DNA from: a virus
Virus genome (UHGV): UHGV-1300782
Reading direction: 5' to 3' (one strand)
DNA length: 12,558 nt
Shown here: piece after piece, positions 1-10,523 of the stretch
How positions within the stretch are numbered: position 1 is the first letter of the stretch
How the letters are laid out: the number at the start of each line of letters is the position of its first letter
Translations under genes and position numbers: made by a program
Notes under the pieces: model-generated
What the model was told of the DNA's origin: nothing
The model's input: only the letters and a program-made list of their open reading frames with translations
The model's database searches: none

Positions 1-147
1 GGCGTCCGCTGGGTTATCGTTGGCCACATCGCGAGCTTCTTTGCTGACGAAAGCCCACTTAATGCCTTCCTGTAAGGTGCGGAACTTCCAGCTCATGAAT
101 CCGCATGCAGTAACGCAGTACCAACCGTTGATGATTTTCCACTGCAT
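1..147 (-). CDS. Hypothetical protein, N-terminal 49 codons only (gene runs off the left edge); first gene of the leftward early transcript
   Basis: Minus-strand ATG at 147-145 with GAGGT 8 nt upstream; reverse-complement translation MQWKIINGWYCVTACGFMSWKFRTLQEGIKWAFVSKEARDVANDNPADA stays open to position 1. Lies directly downstream of the PL-like promoter. Absent from the ORF track because it is truncated. No family recognised. Confidence 0.45.
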   Translation of the reverse strand, partial: MQWKIINGWYCVTACGFMSWKFRTLQEGIKWAFVSKEARDVANDNPADA

Positions 148-300: not shown

Positions 301-885
301 TTATTGTTTGCTTTTTTCGTTCTGGTTGATGACAAATTCAATGTAACTTTCGATCTTTGCTTTCTCGGTTTCGGGTAACAATGCGTAGCGCGAGCGGTCA
401 TAGTTGATGGTCGCAGGGTCGTGCGGGTGAATCAGTAATTCATAGCCGTGACGCCCGAATGCGGATGCCACATTCTCCAGGGTGGAAATGGAAACGCTAA
501 CCTCATTGTTTAACAGGCGGCTGATTGTCACCTGGGCGACGCCGGATGCGCGGTGAAGTTTTCCCTGTGTTGAAAGGTCGCGGCTTTCGCTCATCCAGCG
601 TTCCAGGTTGTGAGCCGCCAGCTGACCAATGTCGCTTGGGCCGACAGGCTGAAAACCTTCCTGAGAAAGCGAGCGATCGATATCAAGCCAGTTACGGGGT
701 TTATTGGCGGCAGCTTCAATTTTTCGCGCAACCTGGTCGCCGATAACCTTCTTGCCAAGAGCCCAGCGGTTTACCAGATTTGCCTGAGTTCCAAGTTTTT
801 CTGCCATCCGCGTCTGAACACCATTGAATTCACGGTCGATCAAGTCGTTGAGATTTTGCCTGCGGACGTCCTGGATACTTTTCAT
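301..885 (-). CDS. Prophage immunity repressor, tandem helix-turn-helix, no recognisable S24 autopeptidase domain
   Basis: 194-codon ORF divergent from the cro-like gene, with operator palindromes on both sides. N-terminal segment QTRMAEKLGTQANLVNRWALGKK and C-terminal segment SGVAQVTISRLLNNEVSVSISTLENVASAFG both read as HTH units. No Ala-Gly cleavage site or Ser/Lys dyad motif seen. Own terminator at 251-280. No SD before the ATG. Confidence 0.7.
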   Translation of the reverse strand: MKSIQDVRRQNLNDLIDREFNGVQTRMAEKLGTQANLVNRWALGKKVIGDQVARKIEAAANKPRNWLDIDRSLSQEGFQPVGPSDIGQLAAHNLERWMSESRDLSTQGKLHRASGVAQVTISRLLNNEVSVSISTLENVASAFGRHGYELLIHPHDPATINYDRSRYALLPETEKAKIESYIEFVINQNEKSKQ

Positions 886-1636: not shown

Positions 1637-2452
1637 ATGAGCAGACATGCAACAGATTGGGCCTGGGAGACAGATCCAGGTAGCTCGTCATTAAAGCTCA
1701 TACTGCTCTCGATGGCTGACAGAGCCGATGAATATAACCTCTGCTACCCCAGCATAGAACGCCTCGTTAAAGACACTTGCCTGAATAAAAAAACCGTGCA
1801 GGCCGGGCTTATATCGCTCATGAAAATGGGGCTTATTTCAGATACCGGAGAGAGAAAGGGAGCGACGAAAAGAGTGCGGGTTTTCTCTCTTAATATAACC
1901 AAAAACGGGAACATTAAAGGCAACCGGGAAGGGGGTAATGAACCCGAAAACGGTAATGTTACCGAAAACGGGAATATACCCAAAAACGGGATGTTGAATG
2001 ATCCCAAAAACGGGATGTTGAATGATCCCAAAAACGGGATCCAGAACCAGTCATATAACCAGTCATTTAACCAAGAGAGGGAGAGCAGGACAAAAACCGG
2101 GGATTCTGTTCCTCATGACCCCGGCGCAAACAACGCCGTGATGAATAACTTTGTTCCTCCTGGTGGGCCAGGGCAATTAGGCAAATTTGTCATGCATGAA
2201 CAATGGCAGCCATCAGATGACTTTCTTCGGAAAAGCTCATTGCAGGGGATCTACCTGGACAGTCTGCCAACGGCACAGGAACTTGCAGAGTTCAGAATTT
2301 ACTGGATGGCTGAGGGTAAGGCATACCATCAGGCACAGTGGGAGCAGAAGCTGGCAAGGCGGCTGCAGATTAGCAGACAGAAGCAATCAACATTACCTGA
2401 TAACAACGTTCCGCACTGGAACAGCCCTGAAGCGTGGGAGGATTTCTTGTGA
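1637..2452 (+). CDS. Replication initiator (lambda O-like role), N-terminal winged-helix replication-protein domain, iterons embedded in the coding sequence
   Basis: GGAG 7 nt before ATG 1637. N-terminus LKLILLSMADRADEYNLCYPSIERLVKDTCLNKKTVQAGLISLMKMGLI matches the HTH pattern I associate with phage replication initiators. The central region is low-complexity (PKNGMLNDPKNGMLNDPKNG) because it is encoded by the iterons. Stop overlaps the next gene's start (GTGA). Confidence 0.7.
   Translation: MSRHATDWAWETDPGSSSLKLILLSMADRADEYNLCYPSIERLVKDTCLNKKTVQAGLISLMKMGLISDTGERKGATKRVRVFSLNITKNGNIKGNREGGNEPENGNVTENGNIPKNGMLNDPKNGMLNDPKNGIQNQSYNQSFNQERESRTKTGDSVPHDPGANNAVMNNFVPPGGPGQLGKFVMHEQWQPSDDFLRKSSLQGIYLDSLPTAQELAEFRIYWMAEGKAYHQAQWEQKLARRLQISRQKQSTLPDNNVPHWNSPEAWEDFL
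1898..2041. repeat. Iteron array, probable origin of replication
   Basis: Six copies of CC(A/G)AAAACGG(G/T)A at about 1898, 1943, 1961, 1978, 2002 and 2026. The last three sit in an exact 24-bp tandem CCCAAAAACGGGATGTTGAATGAT (1979-2002, 2003-2026, partial third to 2041). Followed by a short direct repeat CCAGTCAT (2049-2056, 2063-2070). Confidence 0.75.
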
Positions 2453-3234
2453 ACAACGTTTTTACCGCGATACAAAACCGTGACGGAGAAGCCCTTTCTC
2501 GCATGTCAGGTTATGAGCATCAGTACGTCAACAATGACAATGTGGTGAACATGTCAGCAGAGAGGCTTGTTGATGCCCTTTTCAAACAGCTGAAACAACT
2601 GTTTCCGGCGGCAGTGGTAACCAACCTGAAGACGCCAGAGCAGGAAGTTGCTGCAAAACAGCAGTGGATTGCTGCGTTTGCCGAAGGGGGAATACGTACC
2701 CGTGAACAGGTTTCTGCTGGTATGCGCCACGCCCGCGCCAGTGAATCTCCGTTCTGGCCGTCGCCAGGGCAATTCATCAAGTGGTGTAAAGACAGCAAGA
2801 TGGTTCTTGGCGTCACCATTGACGATGTGATGGCGGAGTTTCACCGGTACAGCAAGGAAAAAAGTTTATATCCTGGTGGTCCCGAAAGATTCCCGTGGCG
2901 GCATCCGGTTATGTACTGGGTCGTATGTGATACACGCCGTGCAATGTATCAGCGCCAGCTTAGCGAGATTGAGGTTGAGAAACACGCGCGCAGGCTGCTC
3001 GATGATTGGGCGAAAAAGGTGGCTTCCGGACAGCAGATACCCGATCCGGTGATCAGCATACAGGCAAAGCCAGAACCCATGAGTACACCTCCGGACACAG
3101 GGAGAGACGTTTACCATCCACCAGGGCGAAGTTTCGGGTGCATGCCTAACGCCGCCACCCTGGGGGGAATAACACCGGCGCAGTGGCTGATGGAGGAATA
3201 CAGGCGGGGAAAGGCGGCAGGATTTATCAAGTAA
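2449..3234 (+). CDS. Lambda P-like replication protein (helicase loader)
   Basis: GGGAGGA (2436-2442) 6 nt before GTG 2449, overlapping the upstream stop; the 2434 start in the ORF track is the same frame. Stretch QQWIAAFAEGGIRTREQVSAGMRHARASESPFWPSPGQFIKWC closely resembles, as I recall it, the lambda P region containing PSPGQF. Confidence 0.65.
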   Translation: MNNVFTAIQNRDGEALSRMSGYEHQYVNNDNVVNMSAERLVDALFKQLKQLFPAAVVTNLKTPEQEVAAKQQWIAAFAEGGIRTREQVSAGMRHARASESPFWPSPGQFIKWCKDSKMVLGVTIDDVMAEFHRYSKEKSLYPGGPERFPWRHPVMYWVVCDTRRAMYQRQLSEIEVEKHARRLLDDWAKKVASGQQIPDPVISIQAKPEPMSTPPDTGRDVYHPPGRSFGCMPNAATLGGITPAQWLMEEYRRGKAAGFIK

Positions 3235-3270: not shown

Positions 3271-3348
3271 ATTACCTTCTAGGTAATAAAATATTCTAAA
3301 ATCTATTGATTTCGTGTCTTATGTGGTTTTTAATTACCTCAGAGGTAA
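3271..3348 (+). promoter_or_regulatory. Second promoter-operator cassette, rightward, in front of the accessory gene block
   Basis: ATTACC-TTCTA-GGTAAT (3271-3287), -35 TTGATT (3306-3311), 17-nt spacer, -10 TTTAAT (3329-3334), then TTACC-TCAGA-GGTAA (3334-3348) abutting the -10. Operator centres are 62 bp apart, as at PL. The right half-site GAGGT also serves as the SD for the ATG at 3352. Confidence 0.6.
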
Positions 3349-3351
3349 ATC

Positions 3352-3696
3352 ATGAGAAAACAGATACAGGCTCTTGGTCGACTCAAAACAGGCCAGATGA
3401 ACAAAACAGAATCTGCGTATTGCCAGCACCTTGAGCAGCGTAAACGTGCAGGGGAAATCGCCTGGTATCGATTCGAGGGTATCAAGCTGCGGTTAGCTGA
3501 CAACACGTTCTATACGCCCGATTTTGCTGTGATGCTCGCCACCGGCGAGATGGAACTGCACGAAGTGAAAGGTTTCTGGACCGACGACGCCAGAGTGAAA
3601 ACCAAAGTCGCCGCAGATCAGTATCCGTTCCGAATCATCGGGGTAACGGTTAAACCAAAGAAAGCAGGTGGTGGCTGGAACATCGAAGAGTTCTGA
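3352..3696 (+). CDS. DUF1064-like protein with a PD-(D/E)xK nuclease-type motif
   Basis: 114 codons; GAGGT 4 nt before the ATG. Segment YTPDFAVMLATGEMELHEVKG fits PD ... E-x-K spacing. The DUF1064 family assignment is from memory. Confidence 0.6.
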   Translation: MRKQIQALGRLKTGQMNKTESAYCQHLEQRKRAGEIAWYRFEGIKLRLADNTFYTPDFAVMLATGEMELHEVKGFWTDDARVKTKVAADQYPFRIIGVTVKPKKAGGGWNIEEF

Positions 3697-5637: not shown

Positions 5638-6390
5638 ATGAATACTCTTACCAAAGAATGGTTACAGAACACGATTACCGGAATTGAGTCGATAATAGAC
5701 GATAAATCGTTTGTATGTAGTGAAATAGCATTCGAAATAGGTGTGGTTAACAACATACTTACCGCATTTAAAATTGCACTGGCATCGCTGGCAGCAGTAT
5801 CGGATGAACGGGCAGCCTATGAATTATTTATGGAGAAGCGTTTCGGGGAATCTGTAGATCGCCGCAGGGCAAAAAATGGTGATAGAGAATACATGGCATG
5901 GGATATGGCGCTTGGCTGGATTATCTGGTGTCACCGCGCCGCCATGCTTCAGGGAGGCCAACCTGTAAACCAAACTTACAACTTGCCAGAATTAATCGAA
6001 GGCATGGAAGTTTCCATTGATGTAAGCACTTGTGATGCTGATTTAGGTAATCGCTATTTCGGCACCGTCACCGAGGCGTTAGAACTTGATACTGCCAAGA
6101 ATGGTTACATCCTCCTGGTTCAGGACGCAGAGCCAAACTTCGATGTAAATGGCAACTCTCCGGCAACTCCGGATAGTTGGATAAGCTGTAGTGAGCGAAT
6201 GCCGGAAGACACCAAAATGTTACTGGCATTTAGTCAAGGTGAAATCGTGGCCGCATATTGGAACTGGGTTGTAAATCCAATTGATTACAAAAAATACAGA
6301 GCTTTCACGTATTTATCAGGAAATATCCTAGATGACGTAACCCACTGGATGCCGCTGCCAGAACCGCCGCAGGAGGTTAACCGTGGCTAA
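5638..6390 (+). CDS. DUF551-like protein (tentative, C-terminal WMPLPEPP motif)
   Basis: AAGGTGA 7 nt before ATG 5638. C-terminus SERMPEDT ... THWMPLPEPP resembles the conserved tail of DUF551 prophage proteins as I remember it. Confidence 0.55.
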   Translation: MNTLTKEWLQNTITGIESIIDDKSFVCSEIAFEIGVVNNILTAFKIALASLAAVSDERAAYELFMEKRFGESVDRRRAKNGDREYMAWDMALGWIIWCHRAAMLQGGQPVNQTYNLPELIEGMEVSIDVSTCDADLGNRYFGTVTEALELDTAKNGYILLVQDAEPNFDVNGNSPATPDSWISCSERMPEDTKMLLAFSQGEIVAAYWNWVVNPIDYKKYRAFTYLSGNILDDVTHWMPLPEPPQEVNRG

Positions 6391-6664
6391 CCTGCAACTT
6401 GCCGTCAAAGGTGAATACTTCGATGCCATGATTCGCGGAGATAAAACGGAAGAGTATCGCCTGTGTAATGACTACTGGGAAAAGCGAATTATGTTCCGGG
6501 AATATGACCGCCTGATTATCACAAAGGGATATCCGAAGCGTGACGATTCCAGCCGCAGAATTGACGTTCCGTATGGCGGCTATGAAATCAAGACAATCAC
6601 ACATCCGCACTTCGGCGATAAACCGGTAAAGGTATACGCGATAAAGGTAAATATTGATGGCTAA
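6383..6664 (+). CDS. ASCH/PUA-like small protein (tentative)
   Basis: AGGAGG (6371-6376) 6 nt before GTG 6383, overlapping the upstream stop. N-terminus LAVKGEYFDAMIRGDKTEEYRL matches the ASCH-type pattern (I..I.....GKKT.E.R). Confidence 0.5.
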   Translation: MANLQLAVKGEYFDAMIRGDKTEEYRLCNDYWEKRIMFREYDRLIITKGYPKRDDSSRRIDVPYGGYEIKTITHPHFGDKPVKVYAIKVNIDG

Positions 6665-6995
6665 ATCAGCAGCAGAGCGCAAAGCCGCTCAGAGAGCCAG
6701 ACAAGCTGCATCTGGTGTACGTAAGCTGGAGATTGTGCTTGATGCTCAGGAAATTGAAATGCTGGAGCGTAACTGTGCCACACGTCGCCCCGGGCGTGCG
6801 CCTTACGAATTTGGTGAGTATATAGCGTTACTGATCCGCCAGGATGATGCACGCGTGCGCGGGCGTATAAAATCGATCAGCAGAAAACGTTGCGGTAAGT
6901 GCGGCGAGAGAGTTCCTGTGAATTCATGCCCGTGTAATGGTGACTCGCAATGCTGGGTAACCAAAGGCTGGCATGAAACGAAATTAATAGTGTGA
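6657..6995 (+). CDS. Basic protein with a C-terminal Cys cluster (CGKCGERVPVNSCPC), candidate zinc-binding regulator
   Basis: AAGGT 8 nt before ATG 6657; basic helical N-terminus AERKAAQRARQAASGVRKLEIVL; Cys cluster C-x2-C-x9-C-x-C. Last gene before the terminase operon. Function inferred from composition only. Confidence 0.5.
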   Translation: MAKSAAERKAAQRARQAASGVRKLEIVLDAQEIEMLERNCATRRPGRAPYEFGEYIALLIRQDDARVRGRIKSISRKRCGKCGERVPVNSCPCNGDSQCWVTKGWHETKLIV

Positions 6996-7003
6996 CATGT
7001 CAC
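6991..7003. repeat. Palindrome TGTGACATGTCAC, copy 1
   Basis: The 13-mer recurs exactly at 9442-9454; the 12-bp core GTGACATGTCAC is a perfect palindrome. It spans the stop of the 6657-6995 gene. Confidence 0.7.
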
Positions 7004-7012
7004 GAAGGTGTT

Positions 7013-7225
7013 ATGCCAAAAATACGCTACGACCTTGAAGATATGAGAGATAACTCAGCAAATTTTCCGAAAGAGGTTAAATTTCTCATGCATAAGTATG
7101 GTTGCGCCAGGAGGGATATAGTTATCGACAGTCAGCACCCTTGCGGCGAGGATGTAATTTTCATTCGCGGTAAATGGGAAGGGTATCTTGACGAGAGTTT
7201 TTACGATGAATTTGATGGACTTTGA
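7013..7225 (+). CDS. Hypothetical small protein (70 aa)
   Basis: ATG 7013 preceded by GAAGGTG; the ORF track's GTG at 6992 is in frame and cannot be excluded. Stop at 7223-7225 is followed by a terminator. Confidence 0.5.
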   Translation: MPKIRYDLEDMRDNSANFPKEVKFLMHKYGCARRDIVIDSQHPCGEDVIFIRGKWEGYLDESFYDEFDGL

Positions 7226-7230
7226 ATACT

Positions 7231-7257
7231 GCCGCCAACTATGGCGGCTTTATTTTG
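7231..7257 (+). terminator. Intrinsic terminator between accessory block and terminase genes
   Basis: Hairpin GCCGCCA-acta-TGGCGGC (7231-7248) followed by TTTATTTTG (7249-7257). Confidence 0.7.
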
Positions 7258-7260
7258 CAT

Positions 7261-7292
7261 GGTACTATTACCACAACGGTAACTATTACCAC
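7261..7292. repeat. Direct repeat GGTA(A)CTATTACCAC x2 upstream of terS
   Basis: Exact 10-mer CTATTACCAC at 7265-7274 and 7283-7292. Each copy forms an inverted-order palindrome of the operator half-sites (GGTA-CTAT-TACC at 7261-7272; GGTAA-CTA-TTACC at 7278-7290). Confidence 0.65.
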
Positions 7293-7302
7293 GGTGGTTA
7301 TG

Positions 7303-7896
7303 ATGCCTGCTGAACCTAAAACCTATAAACGCAAATCAACGCAATTTAAGCCACTAACAGCAATGCAGGAGGCTTATTGCCAGTCATACATCAAAACGCC
7401 TGAAAACCAGACTCAGGCAGCGATTAACGCAGGATTCTCCCCAAATACAGCGGCAGTTAAAGCCAGTGTCATGATGCGCGATGAACGCATTCAAAAACGG
7501 ATTGCCGAGCTGATGGAAGAGCGCAACAAACGAATGCGCGTCAGTGCTGATTACGTTCTCATGCGCCTGGTGGAGATCGACCAGATGGACGTGATCGACA
7601 TCCTCAACGACGATGGGAGCCTTAAGCCAATCCGCGAGTGGCCGAAAATCTGGCGCACTACGCTTAGCGGCTTTGATCTGTCATCGACCATCATGAACAT
7701 GAACGAGGATTCGATAGAGACAATCCTCAAAAAAATTAAATGGCCTGACAAGGTGAAGAACCTCGAACTGATTGGTAAGCACGTCGACGTCAACGCATTC
7801 AAAGAACGCCTGGATGTTAATGTGAATGTGACAATTGCTGATCGCATAGCAGCAGCCAGGAAGCGACTCAAAGAACGTCAGGATGGTAATCAGTGA
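7303..7896 (+). CDS. terS: Terminase small subunit (Terminase_2-type)
   Basis: Segment LTAMQEAYCQSYIKTPENQTQAAINAGFSPNTAAVKASVMMRDERIQKRIAELM matches the small-terminase pattern (LT..QE.FC.EY ... QAAI.AGYS). Start placed at ATG 7303 (or 7300) after GGTGG; the TTG 7222 extension in the ORF track reads through the terminator and repeats. Stop overlaps the terL start (GTGA). Confidence 0.7.
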   Translation: MPAEPKTYKRKSTQFKPLTAMQEAYCQSYIKTPENQTQAAINAGFSPNTAAVKASVMMRDERIQKRIAELMEERNKRMRVSADYVLMRLVEIDQMDVIDILNDDGSLKPIREWPKIWRTTLSGFDLSSTIMNMNEDSIETILKKIKWPDKVKNLELIGKHVDVNAFKERLDVNVNVTIADRIAAARKRLKERQDGNQ

Positions 7897-9368
7897 CAGA
7901 TACAGCGTTATCTCCTGAAGAGCAGTTGATCGAGGATATTGCAGGGTTCACTCACGATCCGCTTGGCTATGCTCTCTATGCGTTCCCGTGGGGGGAAGAG
8001 GGGACTGAACTGGCACATGCTACCGGCCCACGTCAATGGCAGGCTGATGCGTTCCGAGAGATACGTGATCACCTGCAGAATCCAGAGACGCGCTATCAGC
8101 CGCTTATGCTGGCACGCGCTTCTGGTCACGGTATTGGTAAATCCGCATTTATCTCAATGCTGATCAACTGGGGCATGTCCACTTGCGAGGATTGTAAGGT
8201 CGTGGTGACCGCCAACACCGACAACCAGCTACGAACGAAGACCTGGCCGGAAATTATCAAGTGGTCAAACCTTGCTATCACGAAAGACTGGTTTACCTGT
8301 ACCGCTACCGCGATGTACAGCAATGACCCTGGGCACGACAAGCGGTGGCGAGCTGACGCAATCCCCTGGTCTGAGCACAACACTGAGGCATTCGCCGGAC
8401 TACACAACGAGCGCAAACGCATCATCGTGGTATTCGATGAAGCGTCGAATATTGCCGATCTTGTGTGGGAGGTAGCAGAGGGTGCGCTGACGGACGAAGA
8501 CACCGAAATCATCTGGGTGGCGTTCGGGAACCCGACGCGTAACACCGGGCGTTTCCGTGAATGTTTCCGCAAGTACAAACACCGCTGGAAGTGTGCGCAG
8601 ATTGACAGCCGGACGGTGGAAGGCACTAACAAACAGCAGTTGCAGAAATGGGTTGATGACTACGGGGAAGACAGCGACTTCGTTAAAATCCGTGTGCGCG
8701 GCATATTCCCTGATGCATCTGAATTGCAGTTTATCCCTACCGGTCTTACTGATGAGGCAATGAAACGGGTGGTAACCGCTGCGCAGGTTGCACATGCTCC
8801 GGTGATAATCGGCGTTGACCCGGCATACTCAGGCGTTGATGACGCGGTGATATACCTGCGGCAGGGGCTGCACAGTAAGGTGCTGTGGACTGGCAACAAG
8901 ACTACTGACGATCTGATTATGGCGAAGCGTATCGCTGACTTTGAAGACCAGTACCAGGCTGACGCAGTGTTCATCGACTTCGGTTACGGAACTGGTCTGA
9001 AGTCAATCGGTGACGGCTGGGGTCGTACATGGCAACTTGTTCCGTTCGGTGGCGCGTCTACTGACCCGCAGATGCTCAATAAGCGCGGGGAGATGTTCAA
9101 CTCATGCAAGACATGGCTGAGGCTGGGCGGCATGCTGGATGACCAGGAAACAGCGGACGACCTGTCGGCGGCAGAGTACAAAGTTCGAGTGGACGGTAAA
9201 ATCGTTATCGAACCGAAGGAAGATATCAAGGAGCGGCTTGGGCGCTCGCCGGGTAAAGGCGATGCGCTACTGCTGACGTTTGCTTTCCCTGTGTCGAAGC
9301 GTCTGCGAATTCCCGGGCAGCAGAACCAGCAAGGCAAGGCCATCACAGATTACGATCCCTATGATTAA
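7893..9368 (+). CDS. terL: Terminase large subunit
   Basis: 491 codons; AGGATGG 6 nt before GTG 7893. Walker A-like ARASGHGIGKSAF, Walker B-like IIVVFDEAS, acidic nuclease-type motif VIIGVDPAYSGVDDAV. Size and position after terS fit. Confidence 0.85.
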   Translation: MTDTALSPEEQLIEDIAGFTHDPLGYALYAFPWGEEGTELAHATGPRQWQADAFREIRDHLQNPETRYQPLMLARASGHGIGKSAFISMLINWGMSTCEDCKVVVTANTDNQLRTKTWPEIIKWSNLAITKDWFTCTATAMYSNDPGHDKRWRADAIPWSEHNTEAFAGLHNERKRIIVVFDEASNIADLVWEVAEGALTDEDTEIIWVAFGNPTRNTGRFRECFRKYKHRWKCAQIDSRTVEGTNKQQLQKWVDDYGEDSDFVKIRVRGIFPDASELQFIPTGLTDEAMKRVVTAAQVAHAPVIIGVDPAYSGVDDAVIYLRQGLHSKVLWTGNKTTDDLIMAKRIADFEDQYQADAVFIDFGYGTGLKSIGDGWGRTWQLVPFGGASTDPQMLNKRGEMFNSCKTWLRLGGMLDDQETADDLSAAEYKVRVDGKIVIEPKEDIKERLGRSPGKGDALLLTFAFPVSKRLRIPGQQNQQGKAITDYDPYD

Positions 9369-9418: not shown

Positions 9419-9445
9419 AGCCAGCTCATCGGCTGGCTGTTTGTG
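9419..9445. terminator. Bidirectional terminator between convergent terL and the reverse-strand gene
   Basis: Hairpin AGCCAGC-tcatcg-GCTGGCT (9419-9438) with TGTTTGTG downstream on the plus strand and an A-run upstream (T-rich on the minus strand). Confidence 0.5.
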
Positions 9446-9455
9446 ACATGTCACA
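9442..9455. repeat. Palindrome TGTGACATGTCACA, copy 2
   Basis: Perfect 14-bp palindrome; the 13-mer is identical to 6991-7003. Sits between the terL stop and the reverse-strand gene. Confidence 0.7.
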
Positions 9456-9458
9456 GAG

Positions 9459-9866
9459 CTAGAAAATAATTTCATCAAATGCAGCATTTATTGCCTTTGC
9501 TTCGCTAATGGCGCCTTGTTTATCGACAATAGCTTTTTTACCAAGCACCTCGGCAAGGCACTGTAGCTTCATGTTGTATAAGTGTTCGCTCATGTAATCA
9601 TTATCACTTTTTGCTTTAGCGCAAACAGAGCGAGAAATATCAAACACATCGCCTTTTTCCATTTCAGAACGTTGTGCTGTTATCCAGTCATGGAACGTAA
9701 CGCTAGTACCATGGTCTTCTCTAAGAGTTAACCCGGTCAGCCCCTCACTCTGAATTACTTCGTAATGCATTTCATTACCAGCAAAAACGCCATAAAAAAT
9801 GCAGTCTTCAGCCTGAACGATACGAGAATATTTTAATGGCCATTCATTTAGATACTTAGCCAACAT
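9459..9866 (-). CDS. Hypothetical protein (135 aa), reverse-oriented AT-rich insert gene (moron candidate)
   Basis: Minus-strand ORF. Start placed at ATG 9866-9864 (MLAKYLNEWPLKY...) because the longer TTG-initiated version (9929) translates the upstream terminator hairpin. No good SD. My hand count over 9461-9640 gives about 37-42% GC against about 48% in a terL sample (8401-8460). No predicted membrane segment by eye; no family recognised. Confidence 0.5.
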   Translation of the reverse strand: MLAKYLNEWPLKYSRIVQAEDCIFYGVFAGNEMHYEVIQSEGLTGLTLREDHGTSVTFHDWITAQRSEMEKGDVFDISRSVCAKAKSDNDYMSEHLYNMKLQCLAEVLGKKAIVDKQGAISEAKAINAAFDEIIF

Positions 9867-9891
9867 ATCAATTGTCTTGATAATCTCACCT

Positions 9892-9916
9892 AAAAAAAAT
9901 GCCCGGCGAACCGGGC
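9892..9916 (-). terminator. Strong intrinsic terminator immediately upstream of the reverse-strand gene
   Basis: Minus strand reads GCCCGG-TTCG-CCGGGC-A-TTTTTTTT (plus 9916 down to 9892): 6-bp GC stem, UUCG tetraloop, U8 tract. Ends about 25 nt before the ATG at 9866. Confidence 0.75.
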
Positions 9917-9993
9917 GAACTGGAAGCAATGAGTTATGCCTTCCGTGGCTGTACTGGTTTACAGCATGAAGTCATCGCAATGGCGTCCTGCTG

Positions 9994-10036
9994 TAAAAAG
10001 GGCGGTGATAGTCCTTCAAGGGAAACCATCACCGCC
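9994..10036 (-). terminator. Candidate terminator of the tRNA
   Basis: On the minus strand a 9-bp stem GGCGGTGAT / ATCACCGCC (plus 10036-10028 and 10009-10001) around an 18-nt loop, followed by C-TTTTT-A; about 44 nt after the tRNA 3' end. Confidence 0.45.
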
Positions 10037-10080
10037 AAGCCCCCTGGAACTTCTGGCATCACGGTCCTTAGGCGTGATTC

Positions 10081-10157
10081 TGGCGTGGCATGCAGGATTC
10101 GAACCTGCGACCAACCGCTTAGAAGGCGGTTGCTCTGTCCAGCTGAGCTAATGCCAC
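10081..10157 (-). tRNA. tRNA-Arg (anticodon UCU)
   Basis: The reverse complement folds by hand into a 77-nt cloverleaf: acceptor GTGGCAT/ATGCCAC, D-stem GCTC/GAGC, anticodon stem ACCGC/GCGGT with loop CTTCTAA (anticodon TCT), variable loop TGGTC, T-arm GCAGG-TTCGAAT-CCTGC, discriminator G, encoded CCA. Confidence 0.85.
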
Positions 10158-10479
10158 AACGCTGAGAGCACTTAGCCTGTTAAGGCGCCACACTTTGTCG
10201 CGGCTCCATAAATGCTCTCATCGTTGTACCCTCGTCTCTTCCGAGGTGTCACACCGAATCGCCTGGATGGTGAATCCCCGTGCGCGGAATAAAACCGCTC
10301 GACTTGCACATTCCGGCTACCTGGTTCGTTTGCCCGAGCAAGGGAGGGTGCCCCTTAAACGTATCCAGACCGCTATCGGCGCATGTGCCATACGCCGTAC
10401 TGCTCAAAATAAAAGCTCACTCCACCTGTTCAATTTAACGACAAGCCAGTCAGGTTAGTAACCGGAATGAACTCTTTGG

Positions 10480-10523
10480 TTACCTGAAAGGTAATAATTC
10501 GTGCGTTAAATGTCAACTGTCTA
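10480..10523 (-). promoter_or_regulatory. Third promoter-operator cassette, leftward, feeding the tRNA/insert unit
   Basis: Minus strand reads TAGACA-G-TTGACA ... AATTAT-TACC-TTTCA-GGTAAC. Operator TTACC-N5-GGTAA at plus 10480-10494 abuts a -10-like AATTAT (plus 10494-10499) exactly as at PL. -35 candidates are TAGACA (plus 10518-10523, 18-nt spacer) or TTGACA (plus 10511-10516, spacer too short). A lone GGTAA half-site sits at 10552-10556, where a second operator 62 bp away would lie. Confidence 0.45.

Follow-up and report, generated by a model that had tools for sequence, protein, structure and literature searches.

The terminase genes in the DNA analysed here (the window, a 12,558-nucleotide stretch of the virus genome UHGV-1300782) probably form an insulated operon that has its own promoter and is directly repressed by a repressor of the SPC32H Rep type. 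This reading starts from the following elements in the short spacer ahead of terS.

7231–7256, plus strand: intrinsic terminator, stems GCCGCCA (7231–7237) and TGGCGGC (7242–7248), loop ACTA, T-tract TTTATTTT (7249–7256)
7260–7268, plus strand: predicted extended −10 element TGgTACTAT, TG at 7260–7261 and hexamer at 7263–7268
7268–7282: operator O1, TTACC-ACAAC-GGTAA, perfect, with the order and spacing of the immunity operators
7286–7300: operator O2, TTACC-ACGGT-GGTTA, one mismatch, centred 18 bp from O1

The window is from a phiV10/epsilon15-like temperate podophage of the genus Uetakevirus and belongs to the E. coli (phiV10-type) branch. Region 6300–8000 is about 97–98% identical to phiV10-type E. 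coli phages (PAS61, O157 typing phages 9 and 10, TL-2011b, and ZX5), compared with 77–87% for the Salmonella phages epsilon15, SPN1S, and SPC32H-type. At the protein level, TerS is 77% and Rep 43% identical to the epsilon15 counterparts. The 77-aa ORF upstream of the terminator was considered as a relative of N15 gp47 and rejected, as the proteins proved unrelated on comparison. The genes referred to below are arranged as follows.

301–885, minus strand: repressor gene rep, assigned to helix-turn-helix (HTH) repressor families by Pfam and PHROG
1040–1270: cro-like gene, between the right-hand operators and the replication genes
1637–3234: replication genes, with a run of small early genes after them
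6654–6995: gene of a Cys-rich 'transcriptional regulator' of the gp49 family (PHROG 536), last in the early-right operon
about 7013–7225: ORF of 77 aa
7300 or 7303 to 7896, plus strand: terS, from Pfam Terminase_2 and the annotations of relatives
7893–9368, plus strand: terL, forming with terS the operon served by this control region
9419–10523, minus strand: leftward ORF and tRNA-Arg between terL and portal
10806 onward: portal gene, rightward operon

The first-pass annotation had placed a good terminator about 45 bp before terS, which was confirmed. Its stem of 7 bp (six GC pairs), 4-nt loop, and 8-nt T-tract directly 3′ fold as RNA with −16.2 kcal/mol (z = −4.18), none of 200 shuffles folded equally well, and its end lies 43 nt from ATG 7300. 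From the sequence, the terminator is predicted to close the early-right operon. The orthologous hairpin of epsilon15 (NC_004775.2, 39646–39672) is annotated as a stem_loop, rho-independent terminator. Most relatives have kept it, and a different sequence is found instead in L064, L084, L085, and L089; in the last of these, from Klebsiella, the end of a gene noted as UmuD-like occupies the place of the terminator. Because the terminator is real, terS needs a start signal of its own.

Downstream of the terminator, the two previously noted repeat copies of the form GGTA(A)CTATTACCAC are present, GGTACTATTACCAC at 7261–7274 and GGTAACTATTACCAC at 7278–7292, with an exact 11-nt core ACTATTACCAC common to both (7264–7274 and 7282–7292, 18 nt apart). 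The 'inverted order' that had been ascribed to their half-sites is a register error: the canonical TTACC-N5-GGTAA is read 7 nt further on, and the unit GGTAA-CTA-TTACC consists of the right half of O1, a 3-bp linker, and the left half of O2. Measured against the model palindrome (A)TTACC-N5-GGTAA(T) of 15–17 bp, O1 matches perfectly and O2 with one mismatch. The first T of O1 is the last T of the −10 hexamer, and O1 spans about −7 to +8 of the predicted promoter. O2 overlaps the Shine-Dalgarno sequence GGTGG (7293–7297) and ATG 7300, its spacer and right half doubling as the Shine-Dalgarno sequence. The repeats are an ordinary operator in the wrong register and not a new kind of site, a plausible misreading that is corrected here, and the proposal that the spacer is a control site of the late operon using operator half-sites is borne out in that the control region of the terminase operon carries the operator motif. 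Two further candidates in the spacer were rejected. The leftmost GGTA of the first repeat copy does not qualify as a third operator, with G7262 being variable and a matching left half absent, and the potential leader RNA hairpin GGUAA-CUA-UUACC is a by-product of two abutting half-sites, with a loop that varies in sequence and length. No Rfam family matched region 6900–7400.

TTACC-N5-GGTAA occurs in the window in seven perfect and two one-mismatch copies compared with 0.22 expected, and none of 200 shuffles reached nine matches (at most one mismatch, 12.5 kb). All nine copies lie between long ORFs, mostly just upstream of gene starts. Those at 167, 229, 941, and 989 stand on both sides of rep (301–885). 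The copies beyond the terS spacer, together with the leftward early promoter, are listed here.

167–181 and 229–243: left-hand operators, both perfect, 62 bp apart, bracketing the leftward promoter
209–181, minus strand: leftward early promoter, TTGACA (209–204), 17 nt, AATTAT (186–181)
941–955 (perfect) and 989–1003 (one mismatch): right-hand operators between rep and the cro-like gene
3272–3286 and 3334–3348: operator pair upstream of the gene at 3352, both perfect and 62 bp apart
10480–10494: perfect operator, with the leftward tRNA-Arg/ORF unit on one side and the rightward portal operon on the other

Operator 989–1003 overlaps the −35 of a rightward promoter at 986–1014. The pair at 3272–3348 is predicted to give the early-right region a second internal start under repressor control, and an orthologous pair is found in epsilon15 (35907/35969) and SPC32H (35972/36034). 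The portal-side operator has orthologs at 2932 in epsilon15 (annotated 'repressor') and at 3175 in SPC32H, and a perfect site 2.7–3.8 kb downstream of the terS start (binned distances) was found in most of 80 relatives. The leftward unit next to this operator (9419–10523, minus strand) lies between terL and the portal operon and has a promoter-like site at 10523–10494 (minus strand) that abuts operator 10480–10494. It comprises a tRNA-Arg (anticodon TCT, UCU in RNA) at 10081–10157, followed by two terminator-like hairpins, and an ORF at 9929–9459 (minus strand) that belongs to PHROG 4846, of unknown function.

The complete genome of epsilon15 contains 12 perfect copies, every one between annotated genes. 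Three are to the left and two to the right of rep, where a third right-hand copy has one mismatch; the remaining copies precede terS, the portal operon, the tailspike/ant pair, the lysis genes, and the mid-early block. In the epsilon15 record (NC_004775.2), seven motif copies are labelled 'protein_bind, repressor', including the terS site at 12..27. SPC32H has 10 perfect copies in the same layout as epsilon15, but with one mismatch in the lysis-gene site, and its rep is flanked by three operator sites on each side, the third right-hand one mismatched. The perfect operator pairs of the window are exactly 62 bp apart from start to start (167/229 and 3272/3334), each pair bracketing a promoter, and this spacing is common to the E. 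coli and Salmonella branches (epsilon15 32555/32617 and 35907/35969; likewise in SPC32H), which suggests looping by a tetrameric repressor. A full-text literature search on the motifs and on Uetakevirus operators returned nothing relevant.

At 7260–7268, a TG stands one base upstream of a TAnnnT hexamer, which is the arrangement of an extended −10 element, and the predicted transcription start is at about 7275. Extended −10 promoters can work without a −35. A simple consensus promoter scan of 7200–7300 gave no promoter and no recognisable or conserved −35. TTGCAT (7255–7260) was rejected as a −35, being 19–21 nt from any −10-like hexamer and not conserved. The register of −10 and operator is alike at the leftward early promoter (AATTAT/TACC, the slash following the hexamer) and at terS (TACTAT/TACC). 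Ahead of 3352, a promoter was read by eye as TTGATT, 17 nt, and TTTAAT/TACC. The leftward early and 3352 units each follow a terminator-like hairpin, the second one read by eye. Since these other units are similar, the layout at terS is one case of a repeated design, consisting of a terminator, a promoter with operator, and a first gene.

Comparison of the spacer among relatives, proposed as a check in the first-pass annotation, separated the constrained positions from the free ones. A TerS search of IMG/VR yielded 80 loci, which together with phage records made 83 loci with 25 spacer haplotypes. The −10-like and operator bases are invariant and the leftmost GGTA half-site is not kept. The invariant columns across the 83 relatives read TG-TA--ATTACC---A-GGTAA, and variation falls on the base after TG (7262; G, T, or A), the middle of the hexamer (C/T/G and T/C), and four of the five operator spacer bases. 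Under the model of an extended −10 plus operator, 15 of 15 constrained positions are invariant and seven of eight free positions vary (Fisher p = 3.3e-5). The TG is the exact point at which conservation sets in; upstream of it the sequence is not conserved across relatives and may even be unrelated. The stretch TGnTAnnATTACC-N5-GGTAA is intact in L064, L084, L085, and L089 though the terminator is absent from them. O1 is present at −32 from terS in all 80 IMG/VR relatives. O2 is imperfect in all, with TTACC...GGTTA in the E. coli branch and TTACT-NNGGT-GGTAA in the Salmonella branch; SPC32H has two mismatches, and the Klebsiella relative L089 has no site. The spacing of O1 and O2 is 20 bp in L074, L084, and L085, and the CTA linker becomes CAA, TTA, or TAAAA among relatives. 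These elements, their enrichment, and their pattern of conservation were observed directly in this analysis.

In PAS61 (L001, 6978–7652), terS is annotated from an upstream TTG (window 7222; 675 nt), which places the terminator and the operators in coding sequence. The long ORF from TTG 7222 is non-coding in this part, because a 2-nt indel is present in the O1–O2 linker of L074, L084, and L085. We take the true terS start to be ATG 7300 or, more likely, 7303.

Another way to read the spacer is that O1 and O2 act solely as a roadblock, stopping elongating polymerase after read-through of an inefficient terminator, with no local promoter, as L5 stoperators do in mycobacteriophages. The motif clearly belongs to the repressor-type sites, the terS spacer has no −35 and received no promoter call, and four relatives lack a terminator between the upstream gene and terS, all of which a roadblock would accommodate. 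It would leave the invariance of TG-n-TA-nn-AT with variable n, which is the signature of an extended −10, without a role, however, and the leftward early promoter has the matching −10/operator register. In addition, a terminator of −16.2 kcal/mol with an 8-nt T-tract is strong, and the 21 ORFs scanned (Pfam and PHROGs) matched no antiterminator family that would carry polymerase past it. We therefore regard a roadblock without a promoter as unlikely and favour the repressed local promoter.

The repressor itself can be named with some precision. Rep of the window matches the structure of SPC32H Rep (PDB 5D50) over its full length (E 3.5e-42), with 43% identity and conservation of the N-terminal helix-turn-helix segment NLVNRW. 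According to the summary in PMC9638917, SPC32H Rep is a tetramer when it binds DNA, its DNA-binding domains forming two pairs, and it is disassembled by Ant. Searching with Rep gave hits in 36 phage records at E ≤ 1e-8, all but two or three of them Uetakevirus-type genomes. Five phages with a TerS 48–60% identical to that of the window (phiES15, ES2, Aeromonas phage 56, vB_EcoM-689R2, and Morganella IME1369_01) have no TTACC-N5-GGTAA upstream of terS, and the 36 records hit by Rep include none of these five. The motif thus follows the repressor and not TerS, its restriction to phages with a Rep hit being a direct observation. Rep and this TerS always occurred together in the collections searched, which offered no heteroimmune swap for comparison; L033 and L047 have long upstream flanks without Rep and probably end before the immunity region. 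Taking the annotator's label in epsilon15 together with the genomic logic, the motif in the terS spacer most likely represents predicted Rep operators. In the ZX5 paper, overexpression of the repressor lowers holin and endolysin transcripts by 99.97–99.99%, and no sites were mapped. About 130 nt upstream of terS in Aeromonas phage 56 (L087; TerS 59% identical; a myovirus), we observed a terminator-like hairpin, TGgTATATT, and TTACC-N14-GGTAA, a similar layout with a different half-site spacing that could be due to homology or coincidence.

It had also been suggested that the repeats are an activator site or an antiterminator target, in which case they would be bound by a late regulator such as the Cys-rich product of 6654–6995. 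The gene of this protein belongs to the 'transcriptional regulator' family PHROG 536 and is the last of the early-right operon, and an activator could be required where a promoter lacks a −35. Several findings speak against this. The repeats are the motif of the immunity operators, the sequence upstream of the −10/TG, where an activator of the P2 Ogr or Mu C type should have left a conserved site, is unconserved in relatives, and the gp49-family protein has a different and strongly linked candidate site, GTGAC-N2-GTCAC. Nor does the spacer resemble a lambda-type Q unit: none of the 21 window ORFs matched a Q or N antiterminator family (Pfam and PHROGs), the terminator is upstream of the promoter-like element, and, because it is also upstream of the repeats, these are absent from any RNA in the course of reading through it. 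Activation or antitermination through the repeats is accordingly very improbable, and of the two routes first envisaged for terminase expression, an own promoter or antitermination, only the own start signal is retained.

The candidate site of the gp49 family is a perfect 12-bp palindrome, GTGACATGTCAC, at 6992–7003, and the PHROG 536 gene uses the TGA within it as stop codon; a second GTGACATGTCAC copy is found at 9443–9454, just beyond terL. Epsilon15 (L005) has three perfect copies (2142, 19517, and 39612) and SPC32H (L092) likewise three (2145, 19634, and 38629), compared with an expectation of about 0.04 copies per genome. In both phages, one copy is at the gp49 stop, another follows terL, and the third coincides with the end of the long structural operon or lies slightly beyond it; each adjoins a terminator-like hairpin, and only some of these hairpins are annotated. 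N15 (L099) has three copies genome-wide (28550, 33237, and 39269). The central dinucleotide is uniform within each genome (AT in epsilon15 and SPC32H, TG/CA in N15). GTGAC-NN-GTCAC also ends the family genes of N15 (gene 46), N15-like Klebsiella and E. coli phages, and P2-like Yersinia phages, whereas the copy that ends the family gene of an Aeromonas phage is degenerate. Among 69 prophage loci from many genera, found with an alignment of three gp49 sequences, the palindrome lies over the stop codon in 34 and within 40 nt in 15 more (49/69), with about 0.2 chance copies expected in all 222 kb. No mention of the palindrome was found in the literature searched. It may be the cognate site of the PHROG 536 protein, for which it is a candidate. 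The N15 copy at 28550–28561 has gene 33 on one side and, on the other, the leader terminator annotated for the antirepressor operon (genes 32–30), which hints at a possible regulation of this operon by the gp46/gp49 family. As a fixed-distance activator site for terS, the palindrome was rejected, with its distance varying from about 100 to 450 bp.

The packaging recognition sequence that had been offered as a further explanation, with the repeats as TerS recognition boxes like SPP1 pacL or lambda cosB, is hardly tenable: TerS does belong to the Terminase_2 (SPP1/SF6 G1P) family, in which the pac region is at the start of gene 1, and in several GenBank records from this phage group the sequence has been opened no more than a few tens of bases away. 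The motif, however, has seven further copies elsewhere in the window and a total of 12 in epsilon15, always in regulatory positions, and the five TerS homologues in phages without a Rep hit have no such site. The epsilon15 record is cut exactly where the annotated terminator ends, apparently by convention and not at a mapped end. The opening 45 nt of terS contain, at 7325–7344, a 10-bp direct repeat in tandem (ATAAACGCAA / ATCAACGCAA) that is largely kept in epsilon15; it may be due to chance or coding constraint.

For the repressed terminase promoter, we infer the following mechanism. Transcription arriving from the early-right operon would halt at the terminator (7249–7256), and polymerase would restart at about 7275 from the extended −10 TGgTACTAT, three bases past the terminator and without a recognisable −35. 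An active −10 and this start point are predictions, as are the steps that involve Rep, which would bind O1 over the −10 and the start point and, more weakly, O2 over the ribosome-binding site, with cooperation between the two sites 18 bp apart probably helping to shut the promoter. The terS-terL operon would be silent in the lysogen through Rep, and inactivation of Rep, whose SPC32H homologue is inactivated by an antirepressor, would open it directly, with no antiterminator involved. Several points run counter to this scheme. The consensus scan called no promoter here and no −35 is recognisable, and O2 is imperfect throughout and missing from one Klebsiella relative. Rep as the sole control leaves the late expression of the packaging genes unexplained, and in the four relatives without a terminator, read-through from upstream may feed terS. 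The cro-like protein might share the operator sites.

More tentatively, and with considerable doubt, one can imagine that these phages have no late activator or antiterminator at all, and that all lytic units are insulated by terminators and opened by the loss of one tetrameric repressor. Such a flat regulon would comprise the early left, early right, mid-early, terminase, portal-to-tail, tailspike, and lysis units, with the terS site as one node, and the sole determinants of timing would be how strong the promoters are and how tightly the operators are bound. A second layer might come from binding of the gp49-family protein to the GTGAC-N2-GTCAC palindromes where operons end. Under the proposed model, the packaging and structural genes of this phage group would be under direct repressor control and not part of a lambda-style antitermination cascade, which is of relevance for the engineering of phiV10-type reporter phages and for predicting which prophage genes stay silent in lysogens.

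The control region can be compared with several known systems. With SPP1 pacL and G1P it has in common the TerS family and short repeats at the start of the terS gene; it differs in that the motif is common to the immunity operators, is distributed genome-wide, and is absent from TerS homologues in phages without a Rep hit. The PR′-qut-tR′ region of lambda is likewise a control point with a terminator at the junction of early-right and late genes. In lambda, the terminator comes after the promoter and Q lets polymerase pass, whereas in the window the order is the opposite and the 21 ORFs scanned matched no Q family. The gp71 stoperators of mycobacteriophage L5 resemble the present sites in that many repressor sites are located outside the immunity region, including in structural-gene operons. 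L5 stoperators are 13-mers that lack symmetry and affect elongation in a single orientation, whereas the sites described here are palindromic and placed on predicted promoters. In phage P1, one immunity repressor, C1, directly gates many operons via scattered operators. The P1 operators are asymmetric 17-mers, in contrast to those of the window, the late genes of P1 need the activator Lpa and are not under direct C1 control, and C1 and Rep are unrelated.

Closest to the present case are the Uetakevirus phages themselves. The SPC32H Rep/Ant lysis–lysogeny switch was reportedly described by Kim and Ryu in 2013 and by Kim and colleagues in 2016. SPC32H (Rep/Ant structures PDB 5D50 and 5D4Z) has the operator motif at matching places, including before terS, and differs in the two mismatches of its O2. 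The tetramer with two pairs of DNA-binding domains, as summarised in PMC9638917, would suit paired sites. In epsilon15 (NC_004775.2), the arrangement is the same, with a hairpin, TGnTACTAT, a TTACC-N5-GGTAA that lies 32 nt ahead of terS, and, 18 bp further on, a copy with one mismatch; the difference is in the annotation, which marks only O1 at terS, with a label that is apparently predicted, and neither a promoter nor a second site. With its terS site and terminator already annotated in this reference genome of the genus, the feature is known, and what the present analysis contributes is the right register, a conserved extended −10, a weaker second operator that covers the ribosome-binding site, and the evidence from many relatives.
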